From: Amphiscolops sp. MND2022
Taxonomy: Eukaryota
Assembly (NCBI GenBank): GCA_964187785.1
Contig: OZ076409.1
Span: forward strand, 3,598,001 to 3,662,000
Length of the DNA: 64,000 nucleotides
Direction of reading: 5' to 3'
Shown here piece after piece: positions 3,482-39,392 of this stretch (positions within the stretch are counted from its first letter, which is position 1; every line of letters starts with the position of its first letter). A model generated the notes under the pieces. The model made no database searches, was not told the origin of the DNA, and worked only from the letters and a program-made list of their open reading frames with translations. Made by a program: the position numbers and the translations under genes.

Positions 3482-3744
3482 GTTTAAACTGAAACGTGAT
3501 ACCAAACGTGACACATAAACAAACTGAACGTGTGATTGTTCTTTAATTATAATACCACAAATTGAATTGCATGTCATCCAAATGAAGGCAAAGGAAAAGA
3601 AACTATTGACATTAGGACATGGAATGATGAAAACAAGTTATGAAAGAATGTGTTAATTGATGAGCTATGTCAAAGCCAGCTGGGACATTAAACAAATCAA
3701 AAAGTTAAATAACAAAAGTTTATACAGTTATAGCTAAAAATGTA

Positions 3745-4272: not shown

Positions 4273-4338
4273 ATAGCACAAAGAGAAAATTTCTGCCCCG
4301 GGACTGAAGCACAAACAAAAATTGCACAGGGGTACGTT

Positions 4339-13963: not shown

Positions 13964-14998
13964 CCAGTGGAGGCAAAGGTACAATCACGAGAAAGGCCGT
14001 AATGACATTCTAGAGGTAAGCAATGAGGCAAAAGTCACAGGATAACAACCATCAATTGTTTGCTTTGTACAAAAGTTGCTCAAAAGTGTTCTTTCATCAG
14101 CAATAATTCATCCTATACCGCACGCACGAACCACCACAGGTGATGTTCAGGCCATGGTTGTTTGTTATCACCGTTCTTCCTCCGAACTGCTTCGCGGTCC
14201 TCCGGAGAACGGTGATGTTGTTATTTACAAGGCAACAAAAATATACTGACAAATTCAGTTCCTACAAGTGAAAGAACAGTTCAGTTATGTCTGATTTACT
14301 TTTTCTGACCTCTGAAACCTCTTTAATTGTCACCCTAAGCGCAGAGTCACTTCTTTTTTGCGTTCAAAATGTGAAAAAGCATCGAAAAATGAGAAAATCT
14401 TTTTTTTTTGAAAAATTCGCATTTTTTAGAATTTTGGTAGAACTTTTGTAGAACTTTTATATTTTTTATTTTTTATCCTGGCCAGGTGATGTTGAAAACA
14501 CATCGACTGCACTGCTACCGCTCAAGTAAACACCATCTCATCCAAAGATCGGAAGTTATGACGCGATGACCGGAAAATTCACATTTTTCCGCTTCTTTTT
14601 CCACTCTTATCTCTCAGCCTAGTATCACCAGCCTAATCATTTTTGGCATGCAAACACCTAACATCATTTATGCCTCGCATGCAAAGTATCAACCAATTGT
14701 ATCCACATGCTGCAGATATCGCAGCGAAAAAATACCGAAAATGGGTGAAAAACCCGATCATTTGCTCATAACTTCCCGCCAAGTAATAGGATCATGTTTG
14801 ACCAGCAGAACATCAGTCATACATCGGCAAAATATTAACACATGCAAAGTTTCATGAAGTTCTAACGGTTCAATTCCGAAATCGCCGTTTTTTGACAGGT
14901 GATCTAGTGGTATATAGTTTGACACGCAATACTTGAGCTCGGCGACGGGACCCTCCCCGGCCTCGCACTAAAATATGTGGGGAAATACCCCTGACCAC
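13964..14998 (-). mobile_element. Non-autonomous unit A (1035 bp, type 1)
   Basis: Bounded by GACCAC|CCAG junctions; carries the shared conserved block; stem-loop at 14167-14216. Confidence 0.85.
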
Positions 14999-16045
14999 CC
15001 AGTGGAGGCAAAGCTACCAATTACCAGGGGGCCGAACGGTACTGCCTGTTCTCAATTCATGTATAACTTGTTCCACTTTGGGGTCACTGATGTGAATTTT
15101 TGCCGATGCACATCGCAACGACGTACATAATCATGTCGAACAAAACTAAACAGTGACTGCCTTCGGTCGTAACAAGTATCTACAGCCTTTCTTCCGGGTC
15201 ACCGTTGTTCCTGCGTGCTGCTGTGCATCCCTCGGAACACCGGTGACAAATAAAATTACGTTTTAAAATCGTGCTACTTATGCATTTGCCTCAACCCTGA
15301 GTATTTTTCAAATACTTACTGAAACTGGTATATCAAGCTGGTGAAAGCGGTCAATATTAAAAATAAACCCATTTTGGCGCCGTTGACACGATAAATAATG
15401 TGATTTTTGAATTCCTGGTATAAAAATACAATGGAATCCGAAAAAATTTTTTTTTTGAAAAAATTCGCAATTTTTAGAATTTTTGTAGAACTTTTGTAGA
15501 ACTTTTTTATTTTTTATTTTTTATCCTGACCACGCGATGTTGAAAACACATCGACTGTACTGCTACCGCTAAAGAAAACATCATCTGTATAAAAGTTCGG
15601 AAGTTATGACGCGATGACCGGAGAATTCACAATTTTCCACTACTTTTTCTACTTCTATCTCCCAGCCTAGTGTCACCAGCCTAATGATTTTTGGCATGCA
15701 AACACCTGACAACATTTATGCCTCGCATGCAAAGTATCAGCCAATTGTATCCACATGCTGCAGATATCGCAGCGAAAAAGTACCGAAACAGGGTGAAAAA
15801 ACCGATCATTTGCTCATAACTTCCCGCCAAGTAATAGGGTCATGTTTGACCAGCAGAACATCATTTGTACATCGGCAAGATAAGTACACATGCAAAGTTT
15901 AAAGAAGTTTTATCGGTTCAATTCGAAAATCGCCGTTTTTTGACTGGTGTGCTAGATGATATAGTTCGACACGCGAAAATTAAGCTCGGCATCGGGACCC
16001 TCCCCGGCCTCGCCCTAAATAATGTGGGGAACTACCCCGGACCAC
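14999..16045 (-). mobile_element. Non-autonomous unit B (1047 bp, type 2)
   Basis: Same junctions. First 29 bp (ccagtggaggcaaagctaccaattaccag) are identical to those of element 2. Stem-loop at 15198-15247. Confidence 0.85.
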
Positions 16046-17215
16046 CCAGTGGAGGCAAAGCTACCAATTACCAGTGAGGCGTGAGAAGTTTCATTGTTAC
16101 GTCGTTGTTTTTCTTATGCGAAAGTGAAAACATAACGTATTAGACAATCAGGACTTTGTATGTCGTTATTATGAACATGGTTACAATTTTGAGGAAAAGC
16201 AGGTGTCACCCGTAACAATTCAATTCATTATAGGAAGCTTCAAAACTGAACAATTCAAGGTATTTGAATTTCATTCGTAAATGTTAAAACGTTTAGGGTT
16301 ACAACTAATGCAGTACGGAAAAGAGTTATGAGATCATTGATACAAAACAACGGAATAGTCAGCAAAGGACAAAACAACTGCGACATGTATAAAATGTAGA
16401 CCTCTCGAAATTCGGAGGTAAACTTTAGGTTGATATGACTGCTATATGTAATGCTATACACAGAGATCAGAAGAGTAAAAAGAGTGTACATTTTGTTAAC
16501 AGTTGTCGTTATTGGTGGTGGCCAGAAAAGGCCACGGGGATTACAGTTTCTAAACCAAATTGGTATAACAACACTACGCATAACACCAAATTTGAAATGA
16601 GCTGAACGAAAGTATCATGATTAAAACAATGTATAGGGATTATGAAGAGAACATGCTAAGTAAGTAATTGACTCATTATTGGGTAGGGTAAGTTGTAAAA
16701 TAATGTTAAAATTGAAACAGGTGTGAATAGTGGTAACTATGAAGAGTTTCTCATCGAATTGAACTTGTAGACACGTTAAAAAAGTCTATACACATAAACA
16801 AATAAAGCAAAACTGTTATTTCTAGATATTGCCAAAAGACATCGACGTGAATAACCTATGTCAAAATTTGCCGAATTGTATACCCGTATGTGTTTAAATA
16901 TGTAAAAATTAGGTAAAAAACATCTGTATTTAAAACAACGACCTGGGTTGACGAACAACCACAAGGTGGATGATGAAAATACCAAAATGTGTGAATTTTA
17001 AAACAACGACCTGGGTTGATGAACAACCACAAGTTGGATGTTGAAAATACCGAAATGTGTGAAAATAGAAAGCAAGGATTGGCGATGAACCGCATCATTG
17101 ACAGGCAATGTGGTACAAGGACAAGGGCAACAAACAGTGACTGTTGATTTATAGAAGGCAAAACATCAACAGTTCGGGAAAAGCGTTGATGTTAAACTTT
17201 GGGATCATTTGGGGA

Positions 17216-18229
17216 TCAATCGTGACCAGCTGGTCGGAGAGGAGGCGGAGGATTGTCATCGTGATTAATTTGGCCAACATCGTACTTCCGGTCGTCAGGA
17301 ATCATTACGGTTGCCCTAATTCTGCATATTTGGACACGACTAATAGTTTGAGCAATGTTTTCTTCAGATAGTCCGCTTTTATAGTAACCGGTCACAAGCC
17401 AACCACCATTGTCGTTGACATACTGCTGAATGTTACGTACACATTGCCTCAAACGATGAACAACGATATCTGTAGCCGGAAGAGCCAGTGTTCCAGTGGT
17501 ACAAAAGATTTTGTTTAACTGCAAACTCTGAAGGACTTCTCCAGATAGAGGATCTTCTTCCACATTGTCAATAGCTGTGGAAAAAATTCGGCAACTTATG
17601 GCCCAAGCGGATACAGCACTCTTTTGAATGCATGCGCAATTGCTACTTTTCACAATTCGTCTATCGCAGAAGACGCCACTGCAAGTAGGAGAAGCGATAT
17701 TTGTTTGAATGAATGACAATTGAGTGTTGTTCAGCTGGAACTTCGTGAGCGCAGTTGTTAACGGGTTTATAACAATAGGAGACGGACGAAGGTTGATACC
17801 ATTGTGGGCAGCAAGCTCTAAAGGTCTTCTAACCTCGAAAATTGGGTTACTGCGGTCGTTTCCTAGGCACAACCCACTGAAAATGGGCTCGTGTACATGC
17901 ACTAGAGCACCTACAGTCAAAAGAGGGTGTCTGAATATACTTGATGATTCTTGGGCGGTAGTAGTTATTACAGCAAAACATGCTGCCGATTGAAGTTCCC
18001 CAATTATAACCAATCTATCGTAGGACGAATCCATAGAAGTTTTTTTAACTCTCCCTACATTAGGACGAAAGGTCTGCAATGGCCTATCGTGACGCTTTGC
18101 AGTTAGAATTATACCCGACACATATGTGTCTTCACTTTCCCGGAGGAAGTTAGGATGGATGACATCAGTAACATTAACTTCGCGCAAGTTTGCCATGAAT
18201 CCTGAAATGAACGTAAACATCAACCACAA
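17216..18229 (-). CDS. Accessory protein of unknown function, possibly OB-fold ssDNA-binding with a Cys cluster (probable ATG at 18196)
   Basis: Uninterrupted 337-codon ORF inside the element. Beta-strand-like pattern (VSGIIL, RLVIIGE, LTVGALVHVHEP) and C-x4-C-x9-CxC. The OB-fold call is inference only. Confidence 0.65.
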   Translation of the reverse strand: MWLMFTFISGFMANLREVNVTDVIHPNFLRESEDTYVSGIILTAKRHDRPLQTFRPNVGRVKKTSMDSSYDRLVIIGELQSAACFAVITTTAQESSSIFRHPLLTVGALVHVHEPIFSGLCLGNDRSNPIFEVRRPLELAAHNGINLRPSPIVINPLTTALTKFQLNNTQLSFIQTNIASPTCSGVFCDRRIVKSSNCACIQKSAVSAWAISCRIFSTAIDNVEEDPLSGEVLQSLQLNKIFCTTGTLALPATDIVVHRLRQCVRNIQQYVNDNGGWLVTGYYKSGLSEENIAQTISRVQICRIRATVMIPDDRKYDVGQINHDDNPPPPLRPAGHD

Positions 18230-20416
18230 AATTAATTAAACGTCAACCGATGATGTAAAATATACAGCAGTGGTCAGTGGGGTAACAGTATATGAAACGC
18301 CACAAAGAGATCACATTTTACAAAACGTGCTGAAAGGATATCTTTTCACGTCGCTTAGGAAAACAACAGGTTAGCCATTAAAAATTATCGTAACGGATTT
18401 TAGAAAGTTTAAGGAGTCTTTAAATTTCAATTCAGGTGCCTTTCAAGTATGAAGACGATGCGCAAATTTTAATCATATAGGCCCGGGTAAAAAAAAGAAA
18501 TACCGGAAAGGCAATGTTGAAGTGCTAAATTTGTAGATGACGTTTCAAACGACTGGACTTTATTACAGTAATCAAATGCGATAGTGCATTGAAATGCAGA
18601 ACTAAAAAGCATTGATTGAATCCGTTTAAAACCTTGAACAAAAACTCATGAACTATCAGCAGTTTATCAGATGAAAATCAGTGACACTTGCAAAATTGGC
18701 AAACGGAAGTGTCAACTCTTTTTGGTTGTCAAAACTAATTGGACAATAGCGTAATAAGGATATTCAATGTATGTGTTTACAGTAACGCCGTAACAAGATC
18801 CATTAAACAACCTTTATCCGGTGGGTGAATGACTCTCAATGACGAAGTTTCTTTTATGCAAAATACAATGAAACAAAACAAGTTAATTGTTTTAACTGAA
18901 ATAAAACAAAATGTATCACAAGGGCGTAACATTATAACGCCCAATAATATGCACTTTAAAAGTCTGAATTACATTAGAACATTCGTGAACAAGTAATGAA
19001 ACCATCCACCAAACTCAATTGCATTTCTTCTACGAGGGAATTGCCCATGTAACAGATGAATATATAGTGCGGAACCAAAAACGCCAACGCAGCTAAGGGA
19101 ACCTTCAACAAATGGTAACAAGGTGCATATCAAAAAACTTGCTTGATTTGCACGCAAGCGTGCAAATCAAGCCGATCCTGTTGGTGATTTATGTATGAAG
19201 AGAAAGACAGTTTTGATTTCAAAAATGCCATTTTTTGGAGGTTGGAAAAGACGCAACAATAAAATGCTGTGAATTTCTGAATTCATAGTCAACATAGGTT
19301 GAAGGTATGTGGTTCCAAAGGAGAAGCGGAAGGAGGCATATTTTGGTTGCCGTAAAGTACTGAATTGTCAGACGTGAAATTGTTTGTAACTCAAAAAAAG
19401 TAAAAACAAAAAACTGCTCTCAATGTAAGTGTTCAAAAGGGTTGAAGAACAACCACTGGATAATGCTGATATAAGGCTGATACATGAGTGCAACATGTTC
19501 GTCAGTGAAAGACGTGTAACAATGATCAAAATCACAAACACAACATTTGTACAAAATTCTTTTACAAATCCGGAGTTGAAGCCAGTCCTAGATAATATAG
19601 TACAACGCGAATAATAACACTGAACGAAATTGTTGAAATCATTTGAAAATCATTGGAATGAGAATACATTGTAATTAGTTGTTTGAAACAGTCGTGAACT
19701 GTCTAAAATTAAAGAGACAACCAGATGAAGAATGATGACAAGGGTTGAAGAGTTCAGTGTTCAGATAATCAATGAGCAAATAAGGCAAATTTGTTACGAC
19801 TAGTTCAACTCAATCTTCAATCCCAAAATATTGCAAATTGAGCTACGAAATGCACTTGTGCTGTTGGTCACAAGACGCTGAAAAGTAACAAAAACAAAAC
19901 ATTCTGCGGAAAACCAATGTTTTCAAGCTAATTATGATTTCACGCCACACTTGCAGATGTAAATGGGGAAAACTGCAAAACGAAAGACTAGTAAATGAAA
20001 CTGTGTATTAATATCAGGTTTGAAACATGACCCATGTACGATTTGTGTACGGCTTGGAAGGAATTAAAAACGTCCGGTTTAAAGGTATTGAAAATAAGTT
20101 TCAAAAGTTGATACGGAAAGGTAAGTTGATGTTAGTAAAAAAATTCATTGGAAAAAAAATCGACACAAAATGAAGACCACATTTGAAAGAAACAATGAAA
20201 AGAAAATGTCATTTTAAAATGTATGACAACGTAACGAAACATTCTACGTTAAGAATCGTTATTTTCAATTAAACATCTGAAAAACTTGAAACGCTTGCCG
20301 TACCAACAAACAAATTATAAACTGCAAGCTGGCCAACAAATCGGTAATTCAGAGAAAAAAGTTCAAATTGCAATGATAACAAAATCATGAGCAGAATAAA
20401 TCTGTATTTCCGATAA

Positions 20417-21010
20417 CTAACGACCTTGATTACGACGTCGCTGCGCAGAGCGGTTCCTGTTAATTCTTTTGTACAGCATCAATTGATGCAAGTTATTTGC
20501 ACCAAACACACGTTGAATGAAATGATGTTCGACTTCAAGATTGACATGAAAATAGTTCATTGCTAGCAAATCACGATAGTGTCTTGACAGTAATGTTCGT
20601 AATTTGATAAAGACGATATTTTCATTGAAGGGCTCCAAATGATCGTCCATATTGAACACCGCATCAGGCCTTGGAATGTAGCAAAAGGCAACAACATTCA
20701 ATCTTCCCAGCTGCTCTAGTTCAGCCCGAAACTGCACTGGGCTTAGGGGCTGCGTTGATTGTGTCGGATGATGCGAAATACTGTTGGATATAACATCGTG
20801 CCACAGTATATACTGTTCTGTTCTCCAATTTCTTTTCCTAATTACTTCATGCACATTTTTCAGACAATTCGAATTGACAAGGGACATTCCTGGTTCTGTG
20901 ACAATCTGATTTTCGAAAGGCCACAATTGGAAAGCGGGGTTATTGATGGCGTGGTGCAAACTGGAGGCCCCAATTACAGTTACTTGCATCTTCGATCTGT
21001 AAATGAGCAA
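20417..21010 (-). CDS. SGNH/GDSL hydrolase-like accessory protein (probable ATG at 20989)
   Basis: VTVIGASS resembles block I GDS, EPG block II, WHDVISNS block III, NYFH block V DxxH. Basic C-terminal tail. Homologous copies at 1-57, 3010-3481 and 21156-21326. Confidence 0.65.
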   Translation of the reverse strand: MLIYRSKMQVTVIGASSLHHAINNPAFQLWPFENQIVTEPGMSLVNSNCLKNVHEVIRKRNWRTEQYILWHDVISNSISHHPTQSTQPLSPVQFRAELEQLGRLNVVAFCYIPRPDAVFNMDDHLEPFNENIVFIKLRTLLSRHYRDLLAMNYFHVNLEVEHHFIQRVFGANNLHQLMLYKRINRNRSAQRRRNQGR

Positions 21011-21155
21011 TGATGATTATGGTGAATTTTGTGAAAGGGAAAACTAAACTTATCAATTGCCGACAAAGCACACTTGAAAAATTTGTCAAAACTGTAAATA
21101 ATAACCCCAATTTTAAAATTACTTTGAAAACGATATAACGAACTAAAGGGGAAGG

Positions 21156-21326
21156 TTAGTTTAACTTTTTCCGAACAACATGGTACACATTTTTGTATGA
21201 ATGTAAATTGTTTTGGGAGATCCCTGGCTCCGGTATGACACTGGTTCCATACAAAGTGCAATTAGAATTTGAACGTAGCATCGCATAGTGCAAGCTTGAT
21301 GCACCGATCACCACCACAGGCAACAT
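21156..21326 (-). pseudogene. Truncated second SGNH-like copy (56 aa)
   Basis: MLPVVVIGASSLHYAMLRSNSNCTLYGTSVIPEPGISQNNLHSYKNVYHVVRKKLN*, homologous to the N-terminus of 20417-21010. Confidence 0.7.
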
Positions 21327-21930
21327 GTTTGAAGTGAAAAGCGATCTGAAACGTTACACATCCACGGGAAGTGATTATATCACTGTTGCATATAATAAGA
21401 AAACGAAATGTAATGCATGTTATTCAACTTAACGCAATGTAAAAAAATCATTGTAATTAACTCACGGATTGGTGACAAAAAAAAATTGAACGTAAGTGTT
21501 TAATTTTAAGCTTTTGTAACGCCAAATAAGAAATTAGCATTAAGGGACAACTAAAAAAGCAACATTTTGTAAAATTATGTTTAGGAAGTTTCTTCACGTA
21601 ATGACGCTACGAAGTTTGTTTGCAGTGGAATCTTCATAAAGCAAAACAGGTTCACAAGATGCATCCACAGAGCACGTGATTCGGTAAAGAAACCGGGTTG
21701 ACGGACAACCACGATAGCAAGTATGGATCTCGGAAATTTTTTTGGGTTGACGAACAACCACAAGGTCAGCTGAGAAGATGATGAGTCGGAAGTTATTAGC
21801 TGTGACTAAGAGTATAACAATTGGGTTGAAGTACAACCACGTTTAATGAGTTGAAGTACAACTACATAGCCAAGGTAAAAAGGACCGCTGGGGTATTGAA
21901 TCACGAGCACGATTTCCACTAGCGTAAGAT

Positions 21931-24900
21931 TCACAGCTGCGGAATTAAAGAGTCACAGTTGAGACCTGACTCCACTCCATTAATTTTGTATAAATCCATT
22001 AAAACGTGACACTCAGAAAGGTAGTCAACGGCAGAAACTTCTGTTGATGCCAAATGACGCGCTTCCATTGACCGTTGCCAGTCAGCTTCAAACTGGGCGT
22101 GAGTCCGCCTAGATACATCAGAAAAGCCGTGAACAAAGGCAGCCAAAGCCCATGGGCGTCTCTCAATTGGTCGTGTAAAATGACTACCCGTCCCGGCGTT
22201 GTGTTGCGACAAACGTTTGCGGAGATTCATACAAGAGCCAATATAAAACAAGTTGCGGTGAGGAACGCTAACCAAAAGATAACAGAAACCAATGGAAGCA
22301 GATGGAACATCAAAATGTTTCAGGGGGAAGGGATGGAATTGTTGGCACTGGGCGATGCGACCAGAACCATGTGAGTACATCTGCAGGAGGGATTCGATGT
22401 ACCACAGAAGATGATTTTCTTTCCGGCAGAGCTCTTTTATTGCATTCAAAGTTTCGGTTCTGTTTCCAACGAAAGTGATGTGTGATAAATCAGTAACTCG
22501 ACTTACAACAACATAAAGTTGTTCTTTGGCCCACAGTAAAAATTTCTTTGCACCGACAATTTGCGTTGCCAAAGACGGAACAGTATCGCCCATTATTTTA
22601 TGATAGGTGGAAGCAACGTACATTTTAACAGGTAACTGAATTCTGCGACAAACCATTCCGCTGTTCAGTCTGTGGATGACACCAACTTGTTTCCTAAGGA
22701 GTACAGAACGCCAACGTTGTATGTTCATGTTTGAAAAGGATAACGACCTAACACCAACGGGTGCTATTCTGACAGTAATTGTGTGCGAGGACTCGTCGAA
22801 AGCCTGAACAACACAAAGCTGGCCTTGAAAGAGTTTCAAACTAGGAAGGTTACAAGTGAGTCGCAAAACACAAGACACATGAAGAAACAAAGATCGCGGT
22901 TCTGGGCAGTTGTGGTTTAGAAACCGTGCTACAGTTTCAGTAGCTTTCATCCAGTTCTGGGAACCACTGTTCGACATTTCGTCGTGACATTCAAAAACAG
23001 CAAACTGAATACTTGGGTCTCGTCGAACAAACTCTATCCGTTGCTCAATAGCTTCTTTCTCAGCGCTTCGAGTTGCAAACACGCGAAGGTCGTGCAAAGA
23101 AACGTCGGACCATTTAGGGACGAAATTACAGTAAGTGTTTACAATTTGAACGACTTGATCACATTTCTCGGGCGATATGGGATACTCCGATAAAAGATTC
23201 AATAAAAGTTTACCGTACAAATTCTGCATACGAACATACTCTTTTAAAAGATAAATTTCAAAAGTGGCCAGTACTGTGTTGCTCATGAGCAATAGCATAC
23301 CGCAGGGTGGAGGTAACTGACGGAAGTCCCCAGTGGATATAACCAATTTACCTCCGAATGGAACAGATGTGTCAGAAACTTGCTGCATGACGCAGTCCAT
23401 AGCAGACCAAAGTTCGGCAGAGACCATAGACACTTCTTCTACGAAAATAATGTCCAAAGCCTTCAAAACGAAAAACTTAACTGGGTCTCTCGCCAATCGA
23501 TTCAATGCATGTGACACCAAATGAGAAACACTGTTGATATCAGAAACAGGGAATGGAAATAGGGCGTTTATATGCCGTCCACCTAAAATGGCAGAACGCT
23601 CAGCTGCCAAACTGGTTATAATGCAAGAAAACCCTTTTGTCATAGCAGACACCACGCAATGAATCATGACATGACTTTTACCTGTTCCAGGTGGACCAAG
23701 TATAACCTGATGTTTTATGAAAGAAGTTGTAGAATTTCGGTATTGCTCCATTGAATCGCATATGGCGTCCAGAATGCTTTGTTGATGAACCAAAGACTCC
23801 GAATTTTGGTTTTGACCCGGGATTATTACAGGAGGCCATGAAAAGGGCGATTGCAAGGTGGCATTGAGTAAATCGGATGCTGAAGGAAGTCCGTGGATAC
23901 CTTGATTTACAACAGCTGTAACAATCCTTTCTTTAATTGAACGAAGCTCCTCGACCACGTCTTCGGATCGCTGTTCCACGACGCTCTCTTCGAGAACCCG
24001 GGGGACAGCACAGGTATACTGCAACAAATTATGCTGAGTGGCCCCAGAAAGATAATTGTGGGCAACACAAAGAAAACGATCCAACAATGACGACGAACCA
24101 GGATAAAAAATTAGCTGTTCCAAAAGAAAGCGACGTGTGATTTGCGAAACCTCTGAATTGTCACAACCTGATCTGCTTTGACACAGACCAGCAGTGTGGA
24201 ACGCTTGAATAATGGAGCTGTTAGCGAACAAATCTAACTCGGTGGTGTAAGATCCCAATGTCAGAAGAATATGGATGATAAAATTGGAGGAATCTCGTGG
24301 CAGGACGTTAGAAAAGACTACTTGACGACAAGTAGCGAACTTGTTTTCACAGAGAAAGTTATTTTGATGTTGACTTCGCAAGCAGGCTAAAGCTTCTAAA
24401 CAGTTGAGATTGAAGGAATTGTCCTTGGTGATGTAATTGGTGCAAAATGAGACAAAGGAATCGACGTAGTATGAATTTAGAAGAACAATGTAACCAAGAC
24501 CGTCTGTCCACAAAGATTCTTCCACTGTTGCCTTGATACAGGATTCAGGTGCCTGCTGTTTTTTTGGTTTGAAACGTAAAAACCACGTGAAGTATTGCTC
24601 AACAGATCTGACAAAACGTAATTCCGGGGGTCTAACACCAAAAATTGTCACTTTGTCAGGTGTCAAAGTGCTTTTTTGCGTGTCAATAATGAGAAATATT
24701 TGGTTGTTGGTAAATTGCCGATGAGAAGGAAGAGACAAATTGCGACGAATAGCGTTTTGTCTAGCATACAACCCAGCTTGGTTGTGGCGGGATAACCTAC
24801 GCTTCTCGAGAATGACACCGGAACGTTTCTCTTTAGGTGCAGTGACCACGTGCACAAAGGATATATTGGAAACGACGTAAGGGAAGCGGAGAGACCACCA

Positions 24901-27900
24901 CGCGGATTCAGTTAAGCTGATAACTCTACCTGTGAAAGTGTTTCTTTTACGTTTGCGACTGAATGCAGGACTGCTCAATTCAACACCCGCAATCTTTTGA
25001 TTAGTCATGGGGTCAATATCGAACGAAAATGTATTTTGTTGAGTTGAACTGCGAATGGAAACATGACTTCGTTCCTCGACTCCGGCCGCGTATTTGGCAA
25101 GATACCGAGCACTCATGTATGTATCGCAAATTTGAAGATTTGTGCTGGAGCGAACTAAAGCAAAAATGCGAGCGTTCGTGGGAGAATAATGCGAGTTCTG
25201 ATCAGTTGGATAATGATGCTTGCCACCACACAAAACAGGATCCAATACAGTTTTGCAAATATCGGCGTCAAATTTTGCAAGTCCAAGTCTTTCAAGAAGT
25301 GACAGGGTTTCTGGGGAAAGGTGCTTGTCTATTGGTTTGTAGGAGAAATCATTAGCTGGAGGATACTTAGGAACTCTACAAACTGACTCTGCAAGCTTCG
25401 TGGTTTTTTTATGACAGCGGAATTTGGCTTTTTTACAACTGTGAGATTGAAACTTTTGAAATAAATCAACCAAATGGTTCGTTTCTGTGGAAGACAGTTT
25501 GTTGTTTCCAACGGACGCAATCAAGGATCCTAAGAAAGTTGATGGTGAACAACAAACACGGGACCGGACAACGTTTGAGTTAACGTCTTCACCTGTCCAT
25601 ATCAGAGCATGAATATGCGGGAACGCACTTGTCTGATCTTGGAACTCATAACGGAACCAAAGTTTTGAAATCCGACCCAAAGGTTCTTCGGGGGACGTTT
25701 CGATGTATTTCATAACCAAAGCAGAGCTACGTTGCCAAGCCCGTAACATGACTATCATTTCGGCCTGAATTGCAGACATTCTGTTTTCTTTTGCGGAACC
25801 CGACGGGGGATATTTTTTGTCCAGAGCAGCAAAAATTTTCCGTAAGCCTGGATGAGTGGATTGACTGCAGGTGTACGTAAAAAAATAGGTTGCAGGCTGC
25901 TCACGAAGAGCAGCACTCAATTCATTAACATTTTTTCGAGAGTCACTCTGATCAAAAGATATTGAAGTGTCGCAAACTTTCTGAGACTGCTGATAATCTT
26001 TGGCAGCTGCACCCCATCCTCTGTTCAAAATCACTCGGCTGTCATGTTCTCTGAGTTGGAGGTTGAACAGGGTGTCGAATGCAAATTGAATGTAACGAGG
26101 ATCAGAAGATGTTAAAAGCGAAGAATCCATCAAACGAGTTTTTAAATGATTTTCCAAAGTGGCGTATCCCAAGTACTTGTTGCTTTGAGGGTTGTTAAAT
26201 AGGCTGGATGGTAAAGAGCCAGGATAACTTCCATCAGCGTTCTGTTTCCAAAAAATTGATGGAAACATCATTGCCTCAGGTTGGTATAATGGAACAGACA
26301 TGGGGGACGATGTAGCGGTAACGTTTTCTAACATTCGCTTAAATCTGGCAGCCACGTACAAAGGAGATCCCTGACGGCGTTTCAAAAGGCCACATTGACC
26401 ATTCAACAATATATGGAGCGGGAGTTTAAAATCATCATTCACATGTACATTGTCAGAAGTGACATTGGGGGCGACGCCCACGCGGGTGTGTGTAGGTATT
26501 GAAATAGAGGAAGCAGCCGAAGACTCGACAGTGAACATAGCATTTGTAACAAGATTAGCAGAACTTGAAGTGCTTGGGGCCTCTTCGAAAGATGAAGAAA
26601 CGTGGGAGTCAGCGCGATTGATGGATGTGGAGTCGTTGGAACCGTTATGAAAAACGGAAGCAATATTCGTTTGTTCGTTGTCATTGTCTTTATACCGTGT
26701 AGGCTCCACAATGTTGACCTCACAACACTGGGATGTGTGTTGTTTGCAAACACAAGCGGAGCATGCGGCGTGAGGACAACGAATAAAAGACGTACGACCA
26801 CAGCGACACGTGAAACCACTTTTCTGCAGGTCACGAGTTAAAGGAATGTGATGAATGTCACACAAAAATCTACCTTGACCAGCCATGGACGTCATAAAAT
26901 GTTTTTTTATATCGGCAGCTGACGTCTCACATGTTCGGTAGTAAACAGCCAACCGCCAGTAACCGTTAATGTACTGATCAACAGCTACATCAGGAGACAA
27001 GGGAACACGCTTCGGACTCCCGGAACTTTGATCGTAAAGCCAAAATTTATGAAAGGGATCTCCATGTCGAACGAGTGCTCTGTTGTTTTGACTACGGGAA
27101 TCAGAGAAAACATTTCGCAACTCAAAATGACCACCGTCAACAGCGGTAAGAGAGAGAGGCAGAGTATGTTTACTGCGCAATGAATTCATACCATTGTATG
27201 AAAAAATTACAATATCGATGCCTTCAAGGGTTCCATTGAAGCGACAAGCAATATCAGGACGGTTAGTGACAACGTGAAATTCAATACATGGAGAAGATTT
27301 GGAGATGTAGAGACCAACGTCGTCGTGAATGGAACCGGAAGAAACGTGCAATTGCTCTGGAATATGAAACTGTGGATTTGAAGCATTAGTCCATTTCGGG
27401 AAAATAACAGTATCAAGCATCCCCAAAATTTGAAGGACGGTTTCATCAGGGTTACTCACTGACGAAATTATGTCACACAAAGTCGGCGAAATCACAAAGA
27501 GTGATTGAAGCAACAGCAATTTTGAATTTTTGAAACAGACTAACTTTGGAGGATTTGCTCCATGGTAGTTAGGAGGATGCGCAAAAGTAATGTTTCTGAA
27601 TTTTCCCAAGATTGTGTCATTGTAGGAAGTAGAAAAAGTGCTCAACATTTTTCTTGTATCCACCAAGGAGACTGAGGTGGAAGACTCCAGCAACATGTCA
27701 GACTTAACCAGGTCACAATGAGTTTTAACCAAAATGGCTTGAGCAATGGAATGTTGTAATTCGCCGGAAGCGACTAATTGGTGCAATAAATACTTAACAT
27801 CCTGTCGATGGTACGCACATTGCGCTTCAGATTTCACCAACAAATCGGAAGTGATGTCCCATCGTCTTTTCGAGCTCAATTGAATGCTACTAATACCAGA

Positions 27901-30393: not shown

Positions 30394-31546
30394 TATCTGG
30401 AAAACAACAAAAGTGTAGAAACATAACAGCAGAGTAGAGAATTGGTAACCATAGTCTAAAAGTTTTTCAAAGTAGCGCGTTGTTAAATGAAACTATTGTA
30501 TAACCGGACAAAGCGGGTGTTTCAACCGGAGTGTAATGAAAAAAAGGTTGCTTCAATGACTACAGTAATTTCAAAACAAGCCTAATATAACTTTTCATTA
30601 ACACGGAAACACTTAGAACATCAGTCATCGTATGGGTTGATGAACAACCACTGAAAATGACAGGGACAAACGACATTAAATATACCATCAAAACATTAAA
30701 GGCACTGTAGGTACGCGTTCCATAAAATTAAGCATAACCGTCATACATTCATGGGAATACCGGTCACAGTCGACATATGTTGATAATGTTATACGTATGT
30801 ATTTGTCTTGAAATACTCAATGGAAAGGTATAATAAGCGGGCGGAGGCGGTCAACATCAACTATTAAACCATTTTGACGCCGCTTACATGAAAAGTAACG
30901 GTATTTTTGAAATCTAAATAAACGAATACTTTGAGAACAGGCAAAAAACTGTATTTGAAAAAATTCGAAATTTTTAGAATTTTTGTAGAACTTTTGTAGA
31001 ACTTTTTTGTTTTTTATTTTTTATCCTGACCACGCGATGTCGAAAACACCTCGAATGTTCTGCTACCACTTGAGGAAACACCGTCTGTACAAAAGTTGGG
31101 AAGTTATGACGCGATGACCGGAAAATTCAAAATTTTCGGTTACTTCTTTCACTTCTATCTCTCAGCCTAGTAACACGAGCCTAATGATTTTTGGCATGCA
31201 TACACCTGACATCATTTATGCCTCGCATGCAAAGTTTCAGCCAATTGTACCCACATGCTGCAGATATCGCAGCGAAAAAATAACGAAAAAGGGTGAAAAA
31301 CCCGATCATTTGCTCATAACTTCCCGCCAAGTAATAGGATCATGTTTGACCAGCAGAACATCAGTCATACATCGGCAAAATATTAACACATGCAAAGTTT
31401 CATGAAGTTCTAACGGTTCAATTCCGAAATCGCCGTTTTTTGACAGGTGATCTAGTGGTATATAGTTTGACACGCAATACTTGAGCTCGGCGACGGGACC
31501 CTCCCCGGCCTCGCACTAAAATATGTGGGGAAATACCCCTGACCAC

Positions 31547-32583
31547 CCAGTGGAGGCAAAGGTACAATCACGAGAAAGGCCGTAATAACATTGTAGAGGT
31601 AAGCAATGAGGCGAAACTCACACGATAACGACCATCAATTGTTATGCATTGTACAAAACTTGCTCAAAACGGCTTCCTTTCATCTGCAATCTTTCATCCT
31701 GTAACGCACGCGCGAACCACCACAGGTGATGTACAGGCCATGTTGTTTGTTATCACCGTTCTTCCTCCGAACTGCTTCGCGGTCCTCCGGAGAACGGTGA
31801 TCTTGTTATTTACAATTTAACAAAAATATACTGACACATTCAGTTCCAACATCTGAAGCAACAGTTGAGTTATGTCTCATTTACTTTTTGTGACCTCTGA
31901 AACCCCTTTAATTGTCACCGTAAGTGCAGAATCACTTCTTTTTTGCGTTCAAAAAGTGAAAAAGCATCGAAAATTGAGAAAATTTTTTTTTTCGAAAAAA
32001 TTCGCAATTTTTAGAATTTTGGTAGAACTTTTGTAGAACTTTTTATTTTTTTATTTTTTATCCTGAACACGCGATGCTGAAAACACATCGACTGTACTGC
32101 TACCGCTCAAGTAAACATCATCTCATATAAAGTTCGGAAGTTATGACGCGATGACCGGAGAATTCACAATTTTCCACTACTTTTTCCCCTTCTATCTCTC
32201 AGCCTAGTATCACCAGCCTAATGATTTTTGGCATGCGAACACCTGACATCATTTATGCCTCGCATACAAAGTATCAGCCAATTGTATCCACATGCTGCAG
32301 ATATCGCAGCGAAAAAGTACCGAAACAGGGTGAAAAAACCGATCATTTGCTCATAACTTCCCGCCAAGTAATAGGATCGTGTTTGGTCAGCAGAACATCA
32401 GTCATACATCGGCAAGATAAGTGCACATGCAAAGTTTCATCAAAATCCTACGGTTCAATTCGAAAATCGCTGTTTTTTACCGACTGACCGAGAGGTATAT
32501 AGTTCGACATGCGAAAGTTGAGCTCGGCATCGGGACCCTCCCCGGCCTCGCAATAAATAATGTGGGGAGGTTCCCCTGACCAC
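31547..32583 (-). mobile_element. Non-autonomous unit C (1037 bp, type 1)
   Basis: Left part resembles unit A; ends at GACCAC|CTAG; stem-loop at 31752-31801. Confidence 0.85.
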
Positions 32584-34725
32584 CTAGCGATGGAGCGATT
32601 TAGAGCACTGCTAGGTAGAGACCTAAACGAAACGGTTGAAAGTTTGTTACTGAAGTATGACACAAACAAATATCCCACGCGAAATCTTTTGTGTATGTTG
32701 TTCACAACTCAACAATAAAAATATCATCACACTGCCAAAATAGGCCAATGGTGACCTCCGTCACGTCACCAAAGAGGTATGTTGGGTTTTGCGTTCAAAA
32801 CAAGCACCGTTGTTCCCGCGAGATGCTGCGCAACTCACGGAACACCGGTGACAATGAATTTTGCTAGCCGATTTGCAACAACTTAATTAACACTTTCAGG
32901 CACTTTTTGGCATACCTTTTGCCCAAGGGATATTTTGCTCCTTACAGATAGTAAACCCCAACCCCCTAAGCAGTTTCAAGTTCGCTGCAGCTGCTTCGTG
33001 TGCTGCATCAAATGCAACTCAACGTGATGCAATGATTTATCATCCGATCAGTCATAATGCCAAAACTCAAAAAAATCAACTTTTTTCAAATGTCTCCTAC
33101 AGGTGAACGAATTACATTTTTGGAACCCCCATTGGATGCTGACAATTTTTGACCTTATGGTCCGAGACCGTGCGGACCGTTCCGGCTGCTCAAATCATCA
33201 AATTGATCAAAGTGATTCAGTCAAAAAAATTAATTTGGCACTTTTCGGCACTTTGGTTGCCCCCTGGGGGAAATTTTTTTGGACCGTTCGAAAGACCGTT
33301 GACCGTTGATGATTTTCATAAATGTGCACTTTGCCGCTACGGGCTTTCCTTCATGGTGAAAATGGCCTTTGATTCGGTCATTGATTAATCAAAGATGAAA
33401 AAAGATGAAAAAAAAAACCAAAAAACGCAAAAAAACCCTACAAAATGAATTTTCCTGGAAAAACGTCAGCAGAAAAAAGTTCTTAAATTTTTGTCATGAA
33501 GCCACATGCAAAGTTTCAGACAAATCCTACGGGTGAATTTCGAGATCGGTTAAAATACTTCGCAATCCTGAAGGTAGGAATTGATAGAATGTGCTCGGCT
33601 CTCGGGACCCTCCCCGGCCTCGCAATATTTTCTGATGGGCATCCCCCTTGACCACCTAGCGATGGAGCGATTTAGAGCACTGCTAGTAAAAGGCCTAAAC
33701 TTAACAGCGCAACCTTTGCTAATGGAGTATGAAAAAGAAATATTGAGGCTAGCAATTTTTTGTAAGTTATTCTGGGATTGAACGATAAATATCATCACCC
33801 TGACGAGTGAATGTCTATGGTGACTGCCGTCAACTTAACTCAAGGGATTTTGTGGTTTTTTGCTTTCTAAGCAAGCACCGTTGCTCCTGCGAGATGCTGC
33901 GCAACTCTCGGAACACCGGTGACAATAAATTTTGCTGATCGATTTGCAATAACCAAATCATCACTTTGAGGCATTTTTTGGCACAACTTATGCCCTAGGG
34001 CTATTTTGCTCTTTACAGAGGGTAAACCCTAGCCCCATAATCAGTTTCAAGTTTGCTGCAGCTGCTTCCTGTGCTGCATCATATCCAACTGAAAGTGATA
34101 CAAGTATTTCTCATCCAATCACTCATAATGACATATACCCCAAAAAATCAACTTTTTTCTGATGTCTCCTACAGGTGAACGAATTACATTTTTGGAACCC
34201 CCATTGGATGTTGACAATTTTTGACCTTATTGTCCGAGACCGTGCGGACCGTTCCGGCTGCTCAAATCATCAATTTGATCAAAGTGATTCAGTCAAAAAA
34301 ATAATTTTGGCACTTTTCGGCACTTTGGTTTCCCCCGGGGGGAAAATTTTTTGGACCGTTCGAAAGACCGTTGACCGTTGATGATTTTCATAAAAGTGCA
34401 CTTTGCCACTACGGGCTTTCCTTCATGGTGAAAATGGCCTTTGATTCGGTCATTGATTAATCAAAGATGAAAAAAGATGAAAAAAACCAAAAAAACGCAA
34501 AAAAACCCTACAAAATGAATTTTCCTGGAAAAACGTCAGCAGAAAAAAAATCTTAAATTTTTGAGATAAAGCCACATGCAAAGTTTCAGACAAATCCTAC
34601 GGGTGAATTTCGAGATCGGTTAAAATACTTCGCAATCCTGAAGGTAGGAATTGATAGAATGTGCTCGGCTCTCGGGACCCTCCCCGGCCTCGCAATATTT
34701 TCTGATGGGCATCCCCCTTGACCAC
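32584..34725 (-). mobile_element. Non-autonomous units D (32584-33655) and E (33656-34725), type 3
   Basis: Both begin ctagcgatggagcgatttagagcactgctag and end gggaccctccccggcctcgc...gaccac. Their interior is strongly diverged from the other types. Stem-loops at 32805-32850 and 33876-33921. Confidence 0.85.
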
Positions 34726-36797
34726 CCAGTGGAGGCAAGGAAACTAATTACCAGAGTGGGCGGGCGGCTTCTGTTGAATTAAATTTTAAAATACGCTACC
34801 AGTACTGTTCACTTTAGGTAACATCCATGGAAACGTTTTTCGTCTGTTCAACTGATGAAAAACTCTGTTTTTCATCAGTTTAACGAATGATTACATATCT
34901 CTCATTCCAACCACCCGGGTACTTCGTTATTTCTATCCGTTGTTCCTGCGAACTGCTTCGCATTTCTCAGGAACAACGGAGAAGTTGTTTCTTGAACTTT
35001 TTTCCGGGACAAAACAATGGCGGGACTTCTAACAAAAGAACAATTAGTTCTGTAAAGTGGCCACTCATCGACGAAGAGGTATGTGAAAATCCTTCAAGTA
35101 GTCATCGTAAGTGCAGCGTTACGTCATTTTCATGCTAAGAATGTGAAAAACCGTCGAAAAACGAAAAAATCTTTTTTTTGAAAAATTCGTCAATTTTAGA
35201 ATTTTTGTAGAACTTTTGAAGAACTTTTTCATTTTTTATTTTTTATCCTGACCACGTGATGATGAAAGTACCTCCAAAGTACTGCTACCGCTAAAGGAAA
35301 CACCATCAATACAAAAGTTCGGAAGTTATGACGGAATGACCGGATTTTTCACAATTTTCGGTTTATATTTCAGCTTCTATCTCCCAGCCTAGTATCACCA
35401 GCCTAATGGTTTTTGACATGCAAACATATTTCTTCATTTATGCCTCGCATGCAAAGTTTCAGCCAATTGTATCCACAGGCTGGTTGTACCGAGGCGTAAA
35501 CATGCCGAAAATAGGTGAAAAAACCGATCATTTGCTCATAACTTCCGACACAGTGTTGCAACCATGTTTTGCCAGGAGAAAAAAGTTCTTATAAGTTTGA
35601 GATCTACCGACACACAAAGTTTCATTCAAATCGTATGGCTCAATTCCAAAATCGCTGTTTTTCTGGACCCCTCACTCTAGATAGATATCTGACAGCATGG
35701 CTCGGACTCGGGGCCCCTCCCCCACCTCGCAAATATTCTGGTAGAGTATACTCGTGACCACCCAGTGGAGGCAAGGAAACTAATTACCAGAGTGGGCGGG
35801 CGGCTTCTGTCAAATTATATTTTAAAATACGCTACCAGTACTGTTCACTTTAAGTAACATCCATGGAAACGTTTTTCGTCTGTTCAACTGATGAAAAACT
35901 CTGTTTTTCATCAGTTTAATGAATGATTACATATGTCTCATTCCAACCACCCGGGTACTTCGTTATTTCTATCCGTTGTTCCTGCGAACTGCTTCGCATT
36001 TCTCAGGAACAACGGAGAAGTTGTTTCTTGAACTTTTTTCCGGGACAAAACAATGGCGGAACTTCTAACAAAAGAACAATTAGTTCTGTAAAGTGGCCAC
36101 TCATCGACGAAAAGGTATGTGAAAATCCTTCAAGTAGTCATCGTAAGTGCAGGGTTACGTCATTTTCATGCTCAGAACGTGAAAAAGCGTCGAAAACCGA
36201 AAAAATCTTTTTTTTTGAAAAATTCGTCAATTTTAGAATTTTTGTAGAACTTTTGAAGAACTTTTTTATTTTTTATTTTTCATCCTGACCACGTGATGAT
36301 GAAAGTACCTCCAAAGTACTGCTACCGCTAAAGGAAACACCATCAATACAAAAGTTCGGAAGTTATGACGGAATGACCGGACTTTTCACAATTTTCGGTT
36401 TATATTTCAGCTTCTATCTCCCAGCCTAGTATCACCAGCCTAATGGTTTTTGACATGCAAACATTTTCCTTCATTTATGCCTCGCATGCAAAGTTTCAGC
36501 CAATTGTATCCACAGGCTGGTTGTACCGAGGCGTAAACATGCCGATAATAGGTGAAAAAACCGATCATTTGCCCATAACTTCCGACACAGTGTTGCAACC
36601 ATGTTTTGCCAGGGGAAAAAAGTTCTTATAATTTTGAGATCTACCTACACACAAAATTTCATTCAAATCGTATGGCTCAATTCCAAAATCGCTGTTTTTC
36701 TGGACCCCTCACTCTAGATAGATATCTGACAGGAGGCTCGGACTCGGGGCCCCTCCCCCACCTCGCAAATATTCTGGTAGAGTATACTCGTGACCAC
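34726..36797 (-). mobile_element. Non-autonomous units F (34726-35761) and G (35762-36797), type 4
   Basis: Near-identical 1036-bp pair with the same junctions; stem-loops at 34936-34980 and 35972-36016. Confidence 0.85.
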
Positions 36798-37832
36798 CCA
36801 GTGGAGGCAAAGGTACAATCACGAGAAAGGCCGTAATGACATTGTAGAGGTAAGCAATGAGGCAAAAGTCACAGGATAACAACCATCAATTGTTTGCTTT
36901 GTACAAAAGTTGCTCAAAAGTGTTCTTTCATCAGCAATAATTCATCCTATACCGCACGCGCGAACCACCACAGGTGATGTACAGGCCATGGTTGTTTGTT
37001 ATCACCGTTCTTCCTCCGAACTGCTTCGCGGTCCTCCGGAGAACGGTGATGTTGTTATTTACAATTCAACAAAAATATACTGACAATTTCAGTTCCAACA
37101 ACTGAAAGAACAGTTCAGTTTTGTCTGATTTACTTTTTGTGACCTCTGAAACCCCTTTAGTTGTCACCGTAAGTGCAGAGTCACTTCTTTTTTGCGTTCA
37201 AAATGTGAAAAAGCATCGAAAAACGAGAAAATCTTTTTTTTTTTGAAAAATTCGCAATTTTTAGAATTTTTGTAGAACTTTTGTAGAACTTTTTTATTTT
37301 TTATTTTTTATCCTGGCCAGGTGATGTTGAAAACACATCGCCTGCACTGCTACCGCTCAAGTAAACACCATCTCATCCAAAGATCGGAAGTTATGACGCG
37401 ATGACCGGAAAATTCACAATTTTCCACTTCTTTTTCTACTTCTATCTCTCAGCCTAGTATCACCAGCCTAATGATTTTTGGCATGCACACACCTGACATC
37501 ATTTATGCCTCGCATGCAAAGTATCAGCCAATTGTATCCACATGCTGCAGATAGCGCAGCGAAAAAGTACCGAAAATGGGTGAAAAACCCGATCATTTGC
37601 TCATAACTTCCCGCCAAGTAATAGGATCATGTTTGACCAGCAGAACATCATTCTTACATCGGCAAGATAAGTACACATGCAAAGTTTAAAGAAGTTTTAT
37701 CGGTTCAATTCGAAAATCGCCGTTTTTTGACTGGTGTGCTAAAGGATATAGTACGACACGCGAAAATTAAGCTCGGCATCGGGACCCTCCCCGGCCTCGC
37801 ACTAAATAATGTGGGGAACTACCCCGGACCAC
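36798..37832 (-). mobile_element. Non-autonomous unit H (1035 bp, type 1)
   Basis: Left part nearly identical to unit A; right end resembles units B and I; stem-loop at 37001-37050. Confidence 0.85.
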
Positions 37833-38881
37833 CCAGTGGTGGCAAAGGTACCTTTTGCAAGCACTGGCCGTTATCCATTCTGTGAAAGTAGAGTTGCGGT
37901 AAAACGAAACCTACATTTGTACAACACTCATTTTAAAAACATGTTTTTACATACATTTTTTTTCACTATAACTGATTTCATATGTAACTGCAGTCACTTT
38001 TGCAGAAAAAGGGACTACAAGCGTTCGCTGCGGGTCACCTCTGTTCCTGCGTGCAGCTCCGCATCACTCGGAACACAGGTGACACTGTGTTTTTAGAGTC
38101 CAAATTGCGATACGTTTATATTTGTTTCCCAAAAACTGAAACCTGATTACTTCGTGATCCCGGGTAACAAACGAATGATATGATTAATACGATGCAAAAT
38201 AAAGCTGTTTTGAACACAGCGACGGTAAAAACAATGTCATTATTACATTCCTGAGAAAAAATTACGCTGGATTTGACAAAAATTTTTTTTTTGAAAAAAT
38301 TCTAAAATTTTAGAATTTTTGTAGAACTTTTGTAGAACTTTTTTATTTTTTATTTTTTATCCTGGCCACGTGATGTTGAAAACACATCGACTGCACTGCT
38401 ACCGCTCAATTAAACACCATCTCATACAAAGTTCGGAAGTTATGACGCGATGACCGGAGAATTCACAATTTTCCACTACTATTTCTACTTCTATCTCCCA
38501 GCCTAGTATCACCAGCCTAATGATTTTTGACATGCAAACACCTAACATCATTTATGCCTCGCATGCAAAGTATCAGCCAATTGTATCCACATGCTGCACA
38601 TATCGCAGCGAAAAAGTACCGAAATGGGGTGAAAAACCCGATCATTTGCTCATAACTTCCCGCCAAGTAATAGGATCATGTTTGACCAGCAGAACATCAG
38701 TCATACATCGGCAAGATAAGTACACATGCAAAGTTTAAAGAAGTTTTATCGGTTCAATTCGAAAATCGCCGTTTTTTGACTGGTATGCTAAAGGATATAG
38801 TACGACACGCGAAAATTAAGCTCGGCATCGGGACCCTCCCCGGCCTCGCACTAAATAATGTGGGGAACTACCCCGGACCAC
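37833..38881 (-). mobile_element. Non-autonomous unit I (1049 bp, type 5), last array member
   Basis: Begins with the hairpin ccagtggtggcaaaggtaccttttgcaagcactgg; stem-loop at 38034-38083; ends GACCAC|CCAGctataag. Confidence 0.85.
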
Positions 38882-39392
38882 CCAGCTATAAGAAATCAAA
38901 AAAATTGCCCATAAAGGACCATTTTATGGTGTACAAATTGACTGTCGAAAATTTCGTTCGAATCGTATGGACAGTTTTTGCGAAAATCAAAAAAAGTCCA
39001 AAATGGTTTTCTCTTGGCCGTTTTTGGGTTGATTTTGTCTATGTTTCTCACATCCCAGCCATACGAATTTGATGAAATTGCATACAAAGGACCATAATAT
39101 GGTGTAGAATGACTGTACTAAATTTCGTTGGAATCGTATGGTCAGATTTCGAGAAAAACGGAAAAAGTCGAGAAATGGCTGTTTTTTGGCCTTTTCGAGG
39201 TAAATTTGACTGTTTCTCACATTCTGGTCATACGATTTTAATGCTTTTGCGCATGCAGGGGCCCCTTTGGGTGGAGTAGGACTGTGAAAATTTTATGAAA
39301 ATCCTATGGACAGTTTTTAAGAATTCTGACATTTTTATTTCGGGAACGACACGAAGGTATAAGAAGTAGTCGAATGTTTTTTCCGACTCCAA
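38882..39392. repeat. Different interspersed repeat flanking the array, with internal subrepeats
   Basis: Three related blocks (ggaccat..tggtgta..gactgt..aatttcgtt.gaatcgtatgg) near 38915, 39090 and 39260; terminal inverted repeat agtcg...cgact at 39368-39388. Confidence 0.5.

Follow-up and report, generated by a model that had tools for sequence, protein, structure and literature searches.

Equal-sized non-autonomous units in a mixed head-to-tail array of Helitron-like elements from Amphiscolops sp. MND2022

Why should non-coding units that differ in much of their sequence be of nearly the same length? This question is raised by a 64,000-nucleotide stretch of Amphiscolops sp. MND2022 DNA (assembly GCA_964187785.1, contig OZ076409.1, positions 3,598,001 to 3,662,000; hereafter "the window"), in which nine small units of five sequence types, all 1035–1072 bp long, stand in an array with two copies of an autonomous Helitron-like element encoding a RepHel transposase. 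An earlier note on this DNA had proposed either a length constraint on the mobilised intermediate, for example ~1-kb circles resembling nanovirus segments, or an old, selected lineage of satellite elements dependent on the RepHel. The reading we favor, with a probability of about 0.6, is that these units descend from one ancient ~1.05-kb hitchhiker that would have been copied by RepHel and inserted at existing junctions, their equal size reflecting ancestry together with mild selection on spacing. All results come from this single locus, and the left end of the array lies beyond the window.

Layout of the array and anatomy of the small units

A search for the junction pattern GACCAC-C[C/T]AG located 11 junctions in the array, between 13,964 and 38,885, with the last bases of CYAG at 13967, 15002, 16049, 31550, 32587, 33659, 34729, 35765, 36801, 37836, and 38885. 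Measured from junction to junction, the nine small units have exactly the lengths reported previously, and the limits given at that time (13964 and 38881) correspond to a boundary set directly before CYAG. The left parts of the small units sort them into five types, as had been counted (a, n = 3; b; c, n = 2; d, n = 2; e), i.e., at most five lineages. All elements lie in a single orientation. Autonomous copy 1 (1–13963, minus strand), whose left end is beyond the window and which ends in the shared right block and a junction, is followed by small units a1 (13964–14998, 1035 bp, hairpin at 14169–14214) and b (14999–16045, 1047 bp, hairpin at 15200–15245), and then by autonomous copy 2 (16046–31546, minus strand), which is complete and measures 15,501 bp from junction to junction. 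Next come a2 (31547–32583, 1037 bp, hairpin at 31754–31799), c1 (32584–33655, 1072 bp, hairpin at 32805–32850), and c2 (33656–34725, 1070 bp, hairpin at 33876–33921), the two c units having CTAG as their first bases. The remainder of the array consists of d1 (34726–35761, 1036 bp, hairpin at 34935–34981), d2 (35762–36797, 1036 bp, hairpin at 35971–36017), a3 (36798–37832, 1035 bp, hairpin at 37003–37048), and the final unit, e (37833–38881, 1049 bp, hairpin at 38036–38081). The flank at the right array end opens with CCAG (38882–38885), the likely target tetranucleotide (CTGG on the strand of the open reading frames, or ORFs).

All nine small units are built on one plan, with the same landmarks in the same order and at the same spacing: a junction, a spacer of ~200 bp, a hairpin of 46–47 nt that begins 197–217 bp into the unit, and 784–809 bp to the next junction. 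The final ~70 bp are conserved throughout the small units and the two autonomous copies, and the opening 11–26 bp are common to a, b, d, e, and autonomous copy 2. Between types, the left ~400 bp match at 45–63% per 100-bp bin, approximately the noise level, with the exception of one b–c bin spanning the hairpin (68%). The right block of ~580 bp (576–584 bp in a, b, d, and e) is mostly 80–100% identical per bin among a, b, and e, and 61–88% identical for d, while type c aligns with the other types only over its last ~200 bp and has a middle part (about 583–590 bp) without detectable homology to them. The previous statement that some types also diverge in the common block is thus borne out for d and c. 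Its companion, that the left parts barely align, describes most bins correctly but overlooks the hairpin present in all nine units and a residual similarity behind it, between a and d and between b and e (z 4.7; none of 200 genomic background pairs as high). As separate observations, the right block common to types a, b, d, and e and to the two autonomous copies (e.g., 14547–14799) is a degenerate long inverted repeat with perfect arms of 11–13 bp lying ~225 bp apart, and the unrelated middle of type c is likewise palindromic, centered near offset 665. In each unit, the terminal tetranucleotide also recurs at a nearly fixed distance, as a second CNAG 21–25 bp in from the left end (CCAG in b, d, and copy 2; CTAG in c; CGAG in a; CAAG in e).

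In all five units scanned, no local structure was more stable than the hairpin (−15 to −20 kcal/mol), with DNA folding z-scores between −1.4 and −7.6 over 11 strand folds. Across seven of the nine units, 110 of 126 pairing cells (87%) were paired, against 31–48% in slid controls, and two-sided changes occurred at 4 of 18 pairs, a covariation score reached by none of 500 shuffles, a test inflated by the relatedness of the units. A covariance model recovered the hairpin in all nine small units (the seven of its training set and the two outside it) and found no match better than E 0.03 in either autonomous copy. Homology of the autonomous copies to type b runs from the right arm of the hairpin onward, and the left arm is missing from them; at the left end of copy 2 only the first ~30 bp match b, while the last ~805 bp of b correspond to its right end. 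The premise that the small units arose as deletion derivatives is therefore contradicted, as the hairpin and most of the left-part DNA are absent from the complete autonomous copy, and simple internal deletion within the present helper would not yield them. Near the variable end of that copy itself, no strong hairpin was found (best −8.3 to −8.6 kcal/mol). No known structured RNA (retrozyme, hammerhead, or others) was recognized, an Rfam scan of 13000–39500 returning only two chance-level hits (E 0.68). A placement of the true boundary of the units in the hairpin loop, with the arms acting as the inverted repeats of Helitron-like elements of class 2 (HLE2; Helitron2, Helentron, and HLE2-reverse), was also rejected, because the two sides stay linked in a (3/3), c (2/2), and d (2/2), the arms covary, and types re-assort only at CYAG.

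The junctions indicate how the types are joined. CTAG precedes c in both cases and none of the nine other elements, whatever stands before (P 0.018), so the C/T base of CYAG belongs to the right-hand unit, and the exchange point lies within TGACCACC. At the a–c junction, the exchange tract comprises at most ~8 identical bases, fewer than homologous recombination would need, which points to site-specific joining as the source of the type switches. Read on the ORF strand, every element runs GTGGTC...CTRG and is itself preceded by CTRG, and the unit ends within the window are CTGG or CTAG in 10 of 10 cases. The flank at the right array end begins with CCAG as well, CYAG occurring at 0.4% of flank positions. 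Over the last 250–300 bp, three haplotypes re-assort among a, b, e, and the autonomous copies, namely X (copy 1, a2), Y (a1, copy 2), and Z (a3, b, e), with a reciprocal swap in the pairs copy 1–a1 and copy 2–a2. This suggests recombination or circle integration inside the shared block as the origin of the mosaic right ends.

Ancestry and constraint as explanations of equal size

We evaluated how much of the size agreement needs explaining. Five independent sizes drawn log-uniformly between 300 and 5000 bp would agree this closely with P ~1e-7 (P 0.025 for c against the rest alone), which excludes the small units as independent deletion derivatives. For descent from a single ancestor, other repeats in the window, compared in 14 pairs, supplied the indel process (96 events at 0.10 per substitution, with large indels under-counted). 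Background-level spacers, if homologous, imply at least 0.9 substitutions per site in simulation, and a total range of ≤37 bp then arises with P 0.38, 0.28, and 0.21 at divergences of 0.9, 1.2, and 1.6, respectively. Equal size alone thus does not demand a size gauge. Other measures are less readily met by chance: the three segment lengths jointly have P 0.013–0.078 (each singly, 0.15–0.64), indels ≥4 bp number 0 of 17 within types as opposed to 25 of 96 in the control repeats (Fisher p 0.012, with the three a copies counted as five events among the 17), and no indel >30 bp is seen in the units where 5–7 would be expected (P 0.05–0.075). Taken together, these measures suggest a mild constraint on spacing. 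Of the outcome that the earlier note had named as refuting its inference, descent from one ancestor with an ordinary indel rate, the single ancestor is likely and the ordinary rate is questionable, as larger indels look depleted. The proposal of an old satellite lineage depending on RepHel gains from the shared ends, from a hairpin that covaries across lineages whose spacers are saturated, and from the residual homology between types.

From the junctions, shared ends, hairpin, spacing, mosaicism, and protein domains observed at this locus, we infer a direction of copying, nicking, circle formation, a target preference, and a role for the hairpin. RepHel would nick between CTRG and GTGGTC, using the conserved ~70-bp end as origin, and one strand would be displaced, coated by the predicted OB-fold protein of the helper (ORF2, see below), and closed into a ~1.05-kb circle at the next CTRG. 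The 5′ end would then be passed to the 3′-OH behind a CTRG; resident junctions would be favored because they are nicked by the same enzyme, which would yield mixed head-to-tail arrays, and the flank also offers a CTGG. The hairpin may act as a signal on the displaced strand. A pause or a licence for termination, which 15-kb elements must lack at that position, has a little under an even chance of being its role; a priming signal for the second strand is less probable, and some other role less probable again. Recombination or circle integration would keep the shared block homogeneous while the spacers drift to saturation, and selection on ends, hairpin, and spacing would preserve the ancestral size. 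This mechanism gains from published data on IS91 (see below) and on Helraiser, in which circles are formed, the left end is required, and a hairpin serves as the terminator (PMC4778049, PMC5876387).

Several points weigh against this common-descent reading. For most spacers, homology cannot be demonstrated (first spacers: mean z 1.0, best pair 2.4), and comparison of the 583-bp middle of c with the other types gives z −0.4 to 1.2; part of the DNA may therefore be unrelated yet equally long. Indels of 4–9 bp do occur between a or b and d, and the control for large indels is thin, consisting of two events between the autonomous copies. As for the mechanism, a terminator role must explain why the helper lacks a strong hairpin at its variable end, the Helraiser terminator hairpin lies 11 nt from the end rather than ~200 nt as here (PMC4778049), and left (origin) ends are usually the more variable in the HELIANO survey, which would reverse the direction (PMC11417382).

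A wider version of the preferred reading, which we regard as doubtful, would make the locus a satellite-replicon system. An undescribed clade of RepHel fused to a GIY-YIG domain, with its RPA/CST-like protein, would serve ~1.05-kb satellites of fixed geometry that are not deletion products and have a private hairpin, with ~800 nt between it and the origin and ~200 nt between it and the terminus; their single-strand circles of defined size would integrate site-specifically at each other's junctions, in the manner of integrons.

Under a strict size gauge, the intermediate would have to measure ~1.05 kb, as a protein-coated or chromatin-counted circle, and unrelated DNA would have been fitted to that length. 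The middle of c, equally long without homology, would then be expected, as would first spacers that are mostly unalignable and still 197–217 bp long, and the absence of large indels from every unit. Yet the total range fits drift from one ancestor (P 0.2–0.4), d differs from a and b by indels of 4–9 bp, and these very ends also bound one element of 15.5 kb and another that is longer still. Type c is the longest on both sides of the hairpin, and the compensating indels that such a gauge predicts, and that the earlier note had looked to, are thus lacking. Furthermore, the structure model of ORF2 matches the OB folds of RPA, CST, and LEF-3 rather than capsids, at least over its well-tested residues 1–154. 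We therefore consider a gauge on nanovirus-like ~1-kb circles unlikely.

The opposite explanation, also rather unlikely in our view, is that no constraint exists at all, i.e., that this is an ordinary non-autonomous Helitron family that kept its ancestral size by chance, with only ends and hairpin being of importance. The total range (P 0.21–0.38), the single segment tests (P 0.15–0.64), and the fact that the lengths form merely three clusters (1035–37, 1047–49, and 1070–72) are all compatible with it. It does not account as well for the joint spacing (P 0.01–0.08), the depletion of indels ≥4 bp, and the missing large indels, and subtypes of rice Mothra with shared termini span 1252–2741 bp (PMC4683698). 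Finally, a host-maintained satellite array (e.g., centromeric or subtelomeric), with unequal crossing-over, a unit length set by chromatin, and transposons as passengers, could be read from the mosaic right blocks, the same-type neighbors c–c and d–d, the repeat-rich setting with a 575-bp satellite at 49.4–54.6 kb, and Helitron-linked arrays reported at centromeres and subtelomeres (PMC13404089, PMC11934779), but is very improbable given type switches that map to 8–20 bp at the junction, a hairpin kept by covariation, and an A-tract periodicity near 10 bp that is seen in a, d, and e and is not the top period in b or c (a crude test without significance values). A helical or nucleosomal phasing of the unit lengths was set aside, given just three length clusters.

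Autonomous copies, their proteins, and their relatives

The two autonomous copies are 82% identical over 11 kb, and each carries an intact RepHel gene on the minus strand (4339–12774, 2811 aa, in copy 1; 21931–30393, 2820 aa, in copy 2), the two proteins being 80% identical. In both, domain searches found a weak OTU match, a Helitron Rep (HUH) domain, a PIF1 helicase, and a C-terminal GIY-YIG domain whose nearest solved relatives are SLX1 proteins. Differences between the copies affect 342 of 1010 four-fold sites and only 258 of 2807 second positions, a pattern indicative of purifying selection on both genes. The H-x-H and Y-xxx-Y columns (H1593, H1595, Y1764, and Y1768) are invariant in 32 aligned relatives. 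In comparison with Helraiser (7LCC), the match was confined to the helicase (E 1e-5).

Copy 2 also encodes ORF2 (17216–18196, minus strand, 326 aa), a conserved partner gene with 219 homologues in the 50% library. Searches of Pfam, PDB sequences, and the Atlas with ORF2 were blank. A structure model (predicted local distance difference test score 70.8) best matched the OB-fold single-stranded DNA-binding proteins CST, RPA, Teb1, and baculovirus LEF-3, with a Foldseek E of 6.5e-5 at low TM-scores and a VIA Z of 9.6 over ~106 residues, the comparison covering residues 1–154. ORF2 is thus predicted to be an RPA/CST-like single-stranded DNA-binding protein rather than a capsid. The capsid alternative is disfavored by the same model, no capsid standing among the good structural matches of those residues.

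Both copies contain further features. ORF3 (20417–21010, minus strand, 197 aa) belongs to no Pfam family, and decayed paralogous copies of it lie just downstream of each RepHel gene (21165–21323 and 3027–3469). Within the additional 3.1 kb of copy 1, a 261-aa ORF (1318–2103, minus strand) is a diverged duplicate of the RepHel N-terminus; a motif ending in ESNPGP, which we take to be 2A-like, occurs in this ORF and near the N-termini of both RepHel proteins, without the usual aspartate. A mini-palindrome, GTTG-N5-CAAC (usually GGGTTGACGAACAACCAC), is found 13 times in copy 1 and 9 times in copy 2 (617–4257, 13039, 16947–21850, 28907, and 30636), at sites that are nearly all non-coding and clustered downstream of ORFs. 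It is absent from the small units, occurs once in the remaining 25 kb, and had no repeated counterpart in 13 long related loci; it is possibly an RNA 3′-end signal or a protein-binding site.

Database searches returned 36 long and 21 shorter RepHel relatives, 27–99% identical in the Rep region, of which the only ones with an organism name were hypothetical proteins of Perkinsus olseni. GIY-YIG was present in 15 of 16 scanned RepHel proteins. Neither DUF6570 nor an AP endonuclease was detected in any of the 16 at E ≤ 0.1, a threshold at which divergence could hide DUF6570, a profile whose presence in the Pfam copy used was unchecked. At the DNA level, 54 metagenome loci and one locus from a genome collection encode relatives 20–53% identical to RepHel, and an ORF2 homologue adjoins the RepHel gene in 14 of these 55 loci (L009, L013, L014, L024, L026, L027, L030, L034, L037, L039, L044, L045, L046, and L052), many of the others being too short to show one. 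In the paired metagenome contigs, of 31–57% GC, the partner lies downstream of the transposase in either orientation, and RepHel-GIY-YIG with its OB-fold partner would thus appear to form a widespread two-gene module. No DNA similarity to the small units was found in the 55 loci, no terminal overlap among the 27 that are ≥6 kb, no match below E 0.15 to the hairpin model, and no related locus in viral contigs. Nor was any sequencing run listed for the DNA of 13968–16049, a blank that is not taken as evidence. One of the relatives (53% identical) lies on a 2.5-kb contig of a bacterial metagenome-assembled genome (L055:3–2510), which is likely host DNA in the bin; the genome behind it contained no match to unit b.

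Elsewhere in the window, the right end of the array adjoins another repeat (38886–39400) that has an internal period of 173 bp and a small hairpin of terminal appearance, resembling by eye a HINE-type element. Nine near-identical copies (99%) of the 575-bp satellite occupy 49442–54609, and what looks by eye like a decayed long interspersed nuclear element lies at ~45600–48750 (plus strand), with a 2A-like motif and stretches resembling an endonuclease and a reverse transcriptase.

Significance and comparison with known systems

If the preferred reading is right, this locus would show a Helitron-like element of a eukaryote choosing its targets in the manner of IS91 and building mixed arrays at junctions of its own, a targeting mode that could be of use for targeted insertion, and its non-autonomous partners would form a long-lived lineage that evolves independently and has a cis signal absent from the helper. 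With two intact transposase genes apparently under purifying selection and nine natural mini-donors, origin, terminator, target, and size dependence are directly testable. If ancestry alone explains the size uniformity, what remains is a well-preserved array from a divergent clade of Helitrons that is apparently undescribed.

By protein, the elements are Helitron-like, with both Helitron_like_N and PIF1 found in the two RepHel ORFs and non-autonomous copies sharing the autonomous termini, and they would seem to work like a non-autonomous Helitron with IS91-type targeting. The 3′ CTRR of HLE1, the canonical Helitrons, is present, as CTGG or CTAG, at all 10 unit ends in the window. The 5′-TC and the insertion between A and T of that class are not, as the ORF strand starts with (G)GTGGTC and the flank supplies CTGG, and no common hairpin of 16–20 nt ~11 nt before CTRR appeared in the consensus or in single folds. 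The HLE2 insertion between two T residues is likewise not seen, junction and flank reading CAC followed by CYAG. A 6-pair helix between a subterminal CCTCGC and the first bases of the next unit can form at 10 of 10 junctions, without two-sided changes, and in 4 of 10 cases the end-to-end duplexes exceeded shuffles at the 5% level or better.

Helitron head-to-tail junctions and arrays were reportedly described by Xiong et al. in 2016. Non-autonomous Helitrons and HINEs (DINE-1, HelibatN, Mothra, and plant centromeric arrays) are, like the small units, short and non-coding, and share their ends with an autonomous RepHel element. The present array differs from these in mixing five types with autonomous copies, in sizes that span 37 bp instead of kilobases, and in a main hairpin that lies in the interior, ~200 nt from an end, and occurs in the small units only. 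Nanovirus segments are ~1 kb long and combine heterogeneous bodies with two conserved cis elements and a need for one common Rep, traits that the small units have or, in the case of the Rep, would have. Unlike such segments, however, the small units are non-coding and integrated, and their helper is 15 times longer. Since no capsid-like fold was found in that helper, among the structural matches of ORF2 residues 1–154, the nanovirus analogy is without support.

Head-to-tail junctions, tandem arrays, circles, and self-insertions of Helitrons have been published (PMC5876387, PMC5148889, PMC13404089, and PMC11934779), and RPA-like partner genes are known in Helitrons (PMC4683698). Full-text searches, in a collection without most subscription papers and Repbase, yielded no description of arrays that mix types of equal size and possess an internal hairpin of their own, or of this RepHel clade combining GIY-YIG with an OB-fold partner. 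The ends are most similar to those of HLE2-reverse (FoHeli3/4/5) and proto-Helentron elements (PMC11417382), with which they share, in ORF orientation, a small 5′ stem-loop upstream of a short inverted repeat and a 3′ CTAG or CTGG. They differ from HLE2-reverse elements in that the inverted repeat is 6–7 bp and imperfect (12–16 nt in HLE2), there is no TT target, and the proteins lack a DUF6570 match (16/16) and bear a C-terminal GIY-YIG (15/16); HELIANO lists one moss HLE2 family with a captured GIY-YIG (PMC11417382).

By description, the third-clade Helitrons of Paramecium (PMC13085455) are alike in several respects: very long ORFs (9–10 kb there, 8.4 kb here), a target that resembles the element's own end (they end in CCAA and insert in CCCCAA repeats), an absolute orientation bias, and the clustering of autonomous with non-autonomous copies. 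Their targets, however, are telomeric repeats, their non-autonomous copies are 6.5–9.9 kb long and filled with satellite, and the main text of that paper mentions neither GIY-YIG nor RPA. In IS91, the tetranucleotide target borders the origin and is similar to the site of terminal cleavage, no target duplication arises, and single-strand circles are formed (10.1101/2025.01.24.634351). This kind of target, and the circles proposed here, make the IS91 family a works-like parallel only, as the present system is eukaryotic, with a RepHel of ~2,800 aa that includes a helicase and a GIY-YIG domain.

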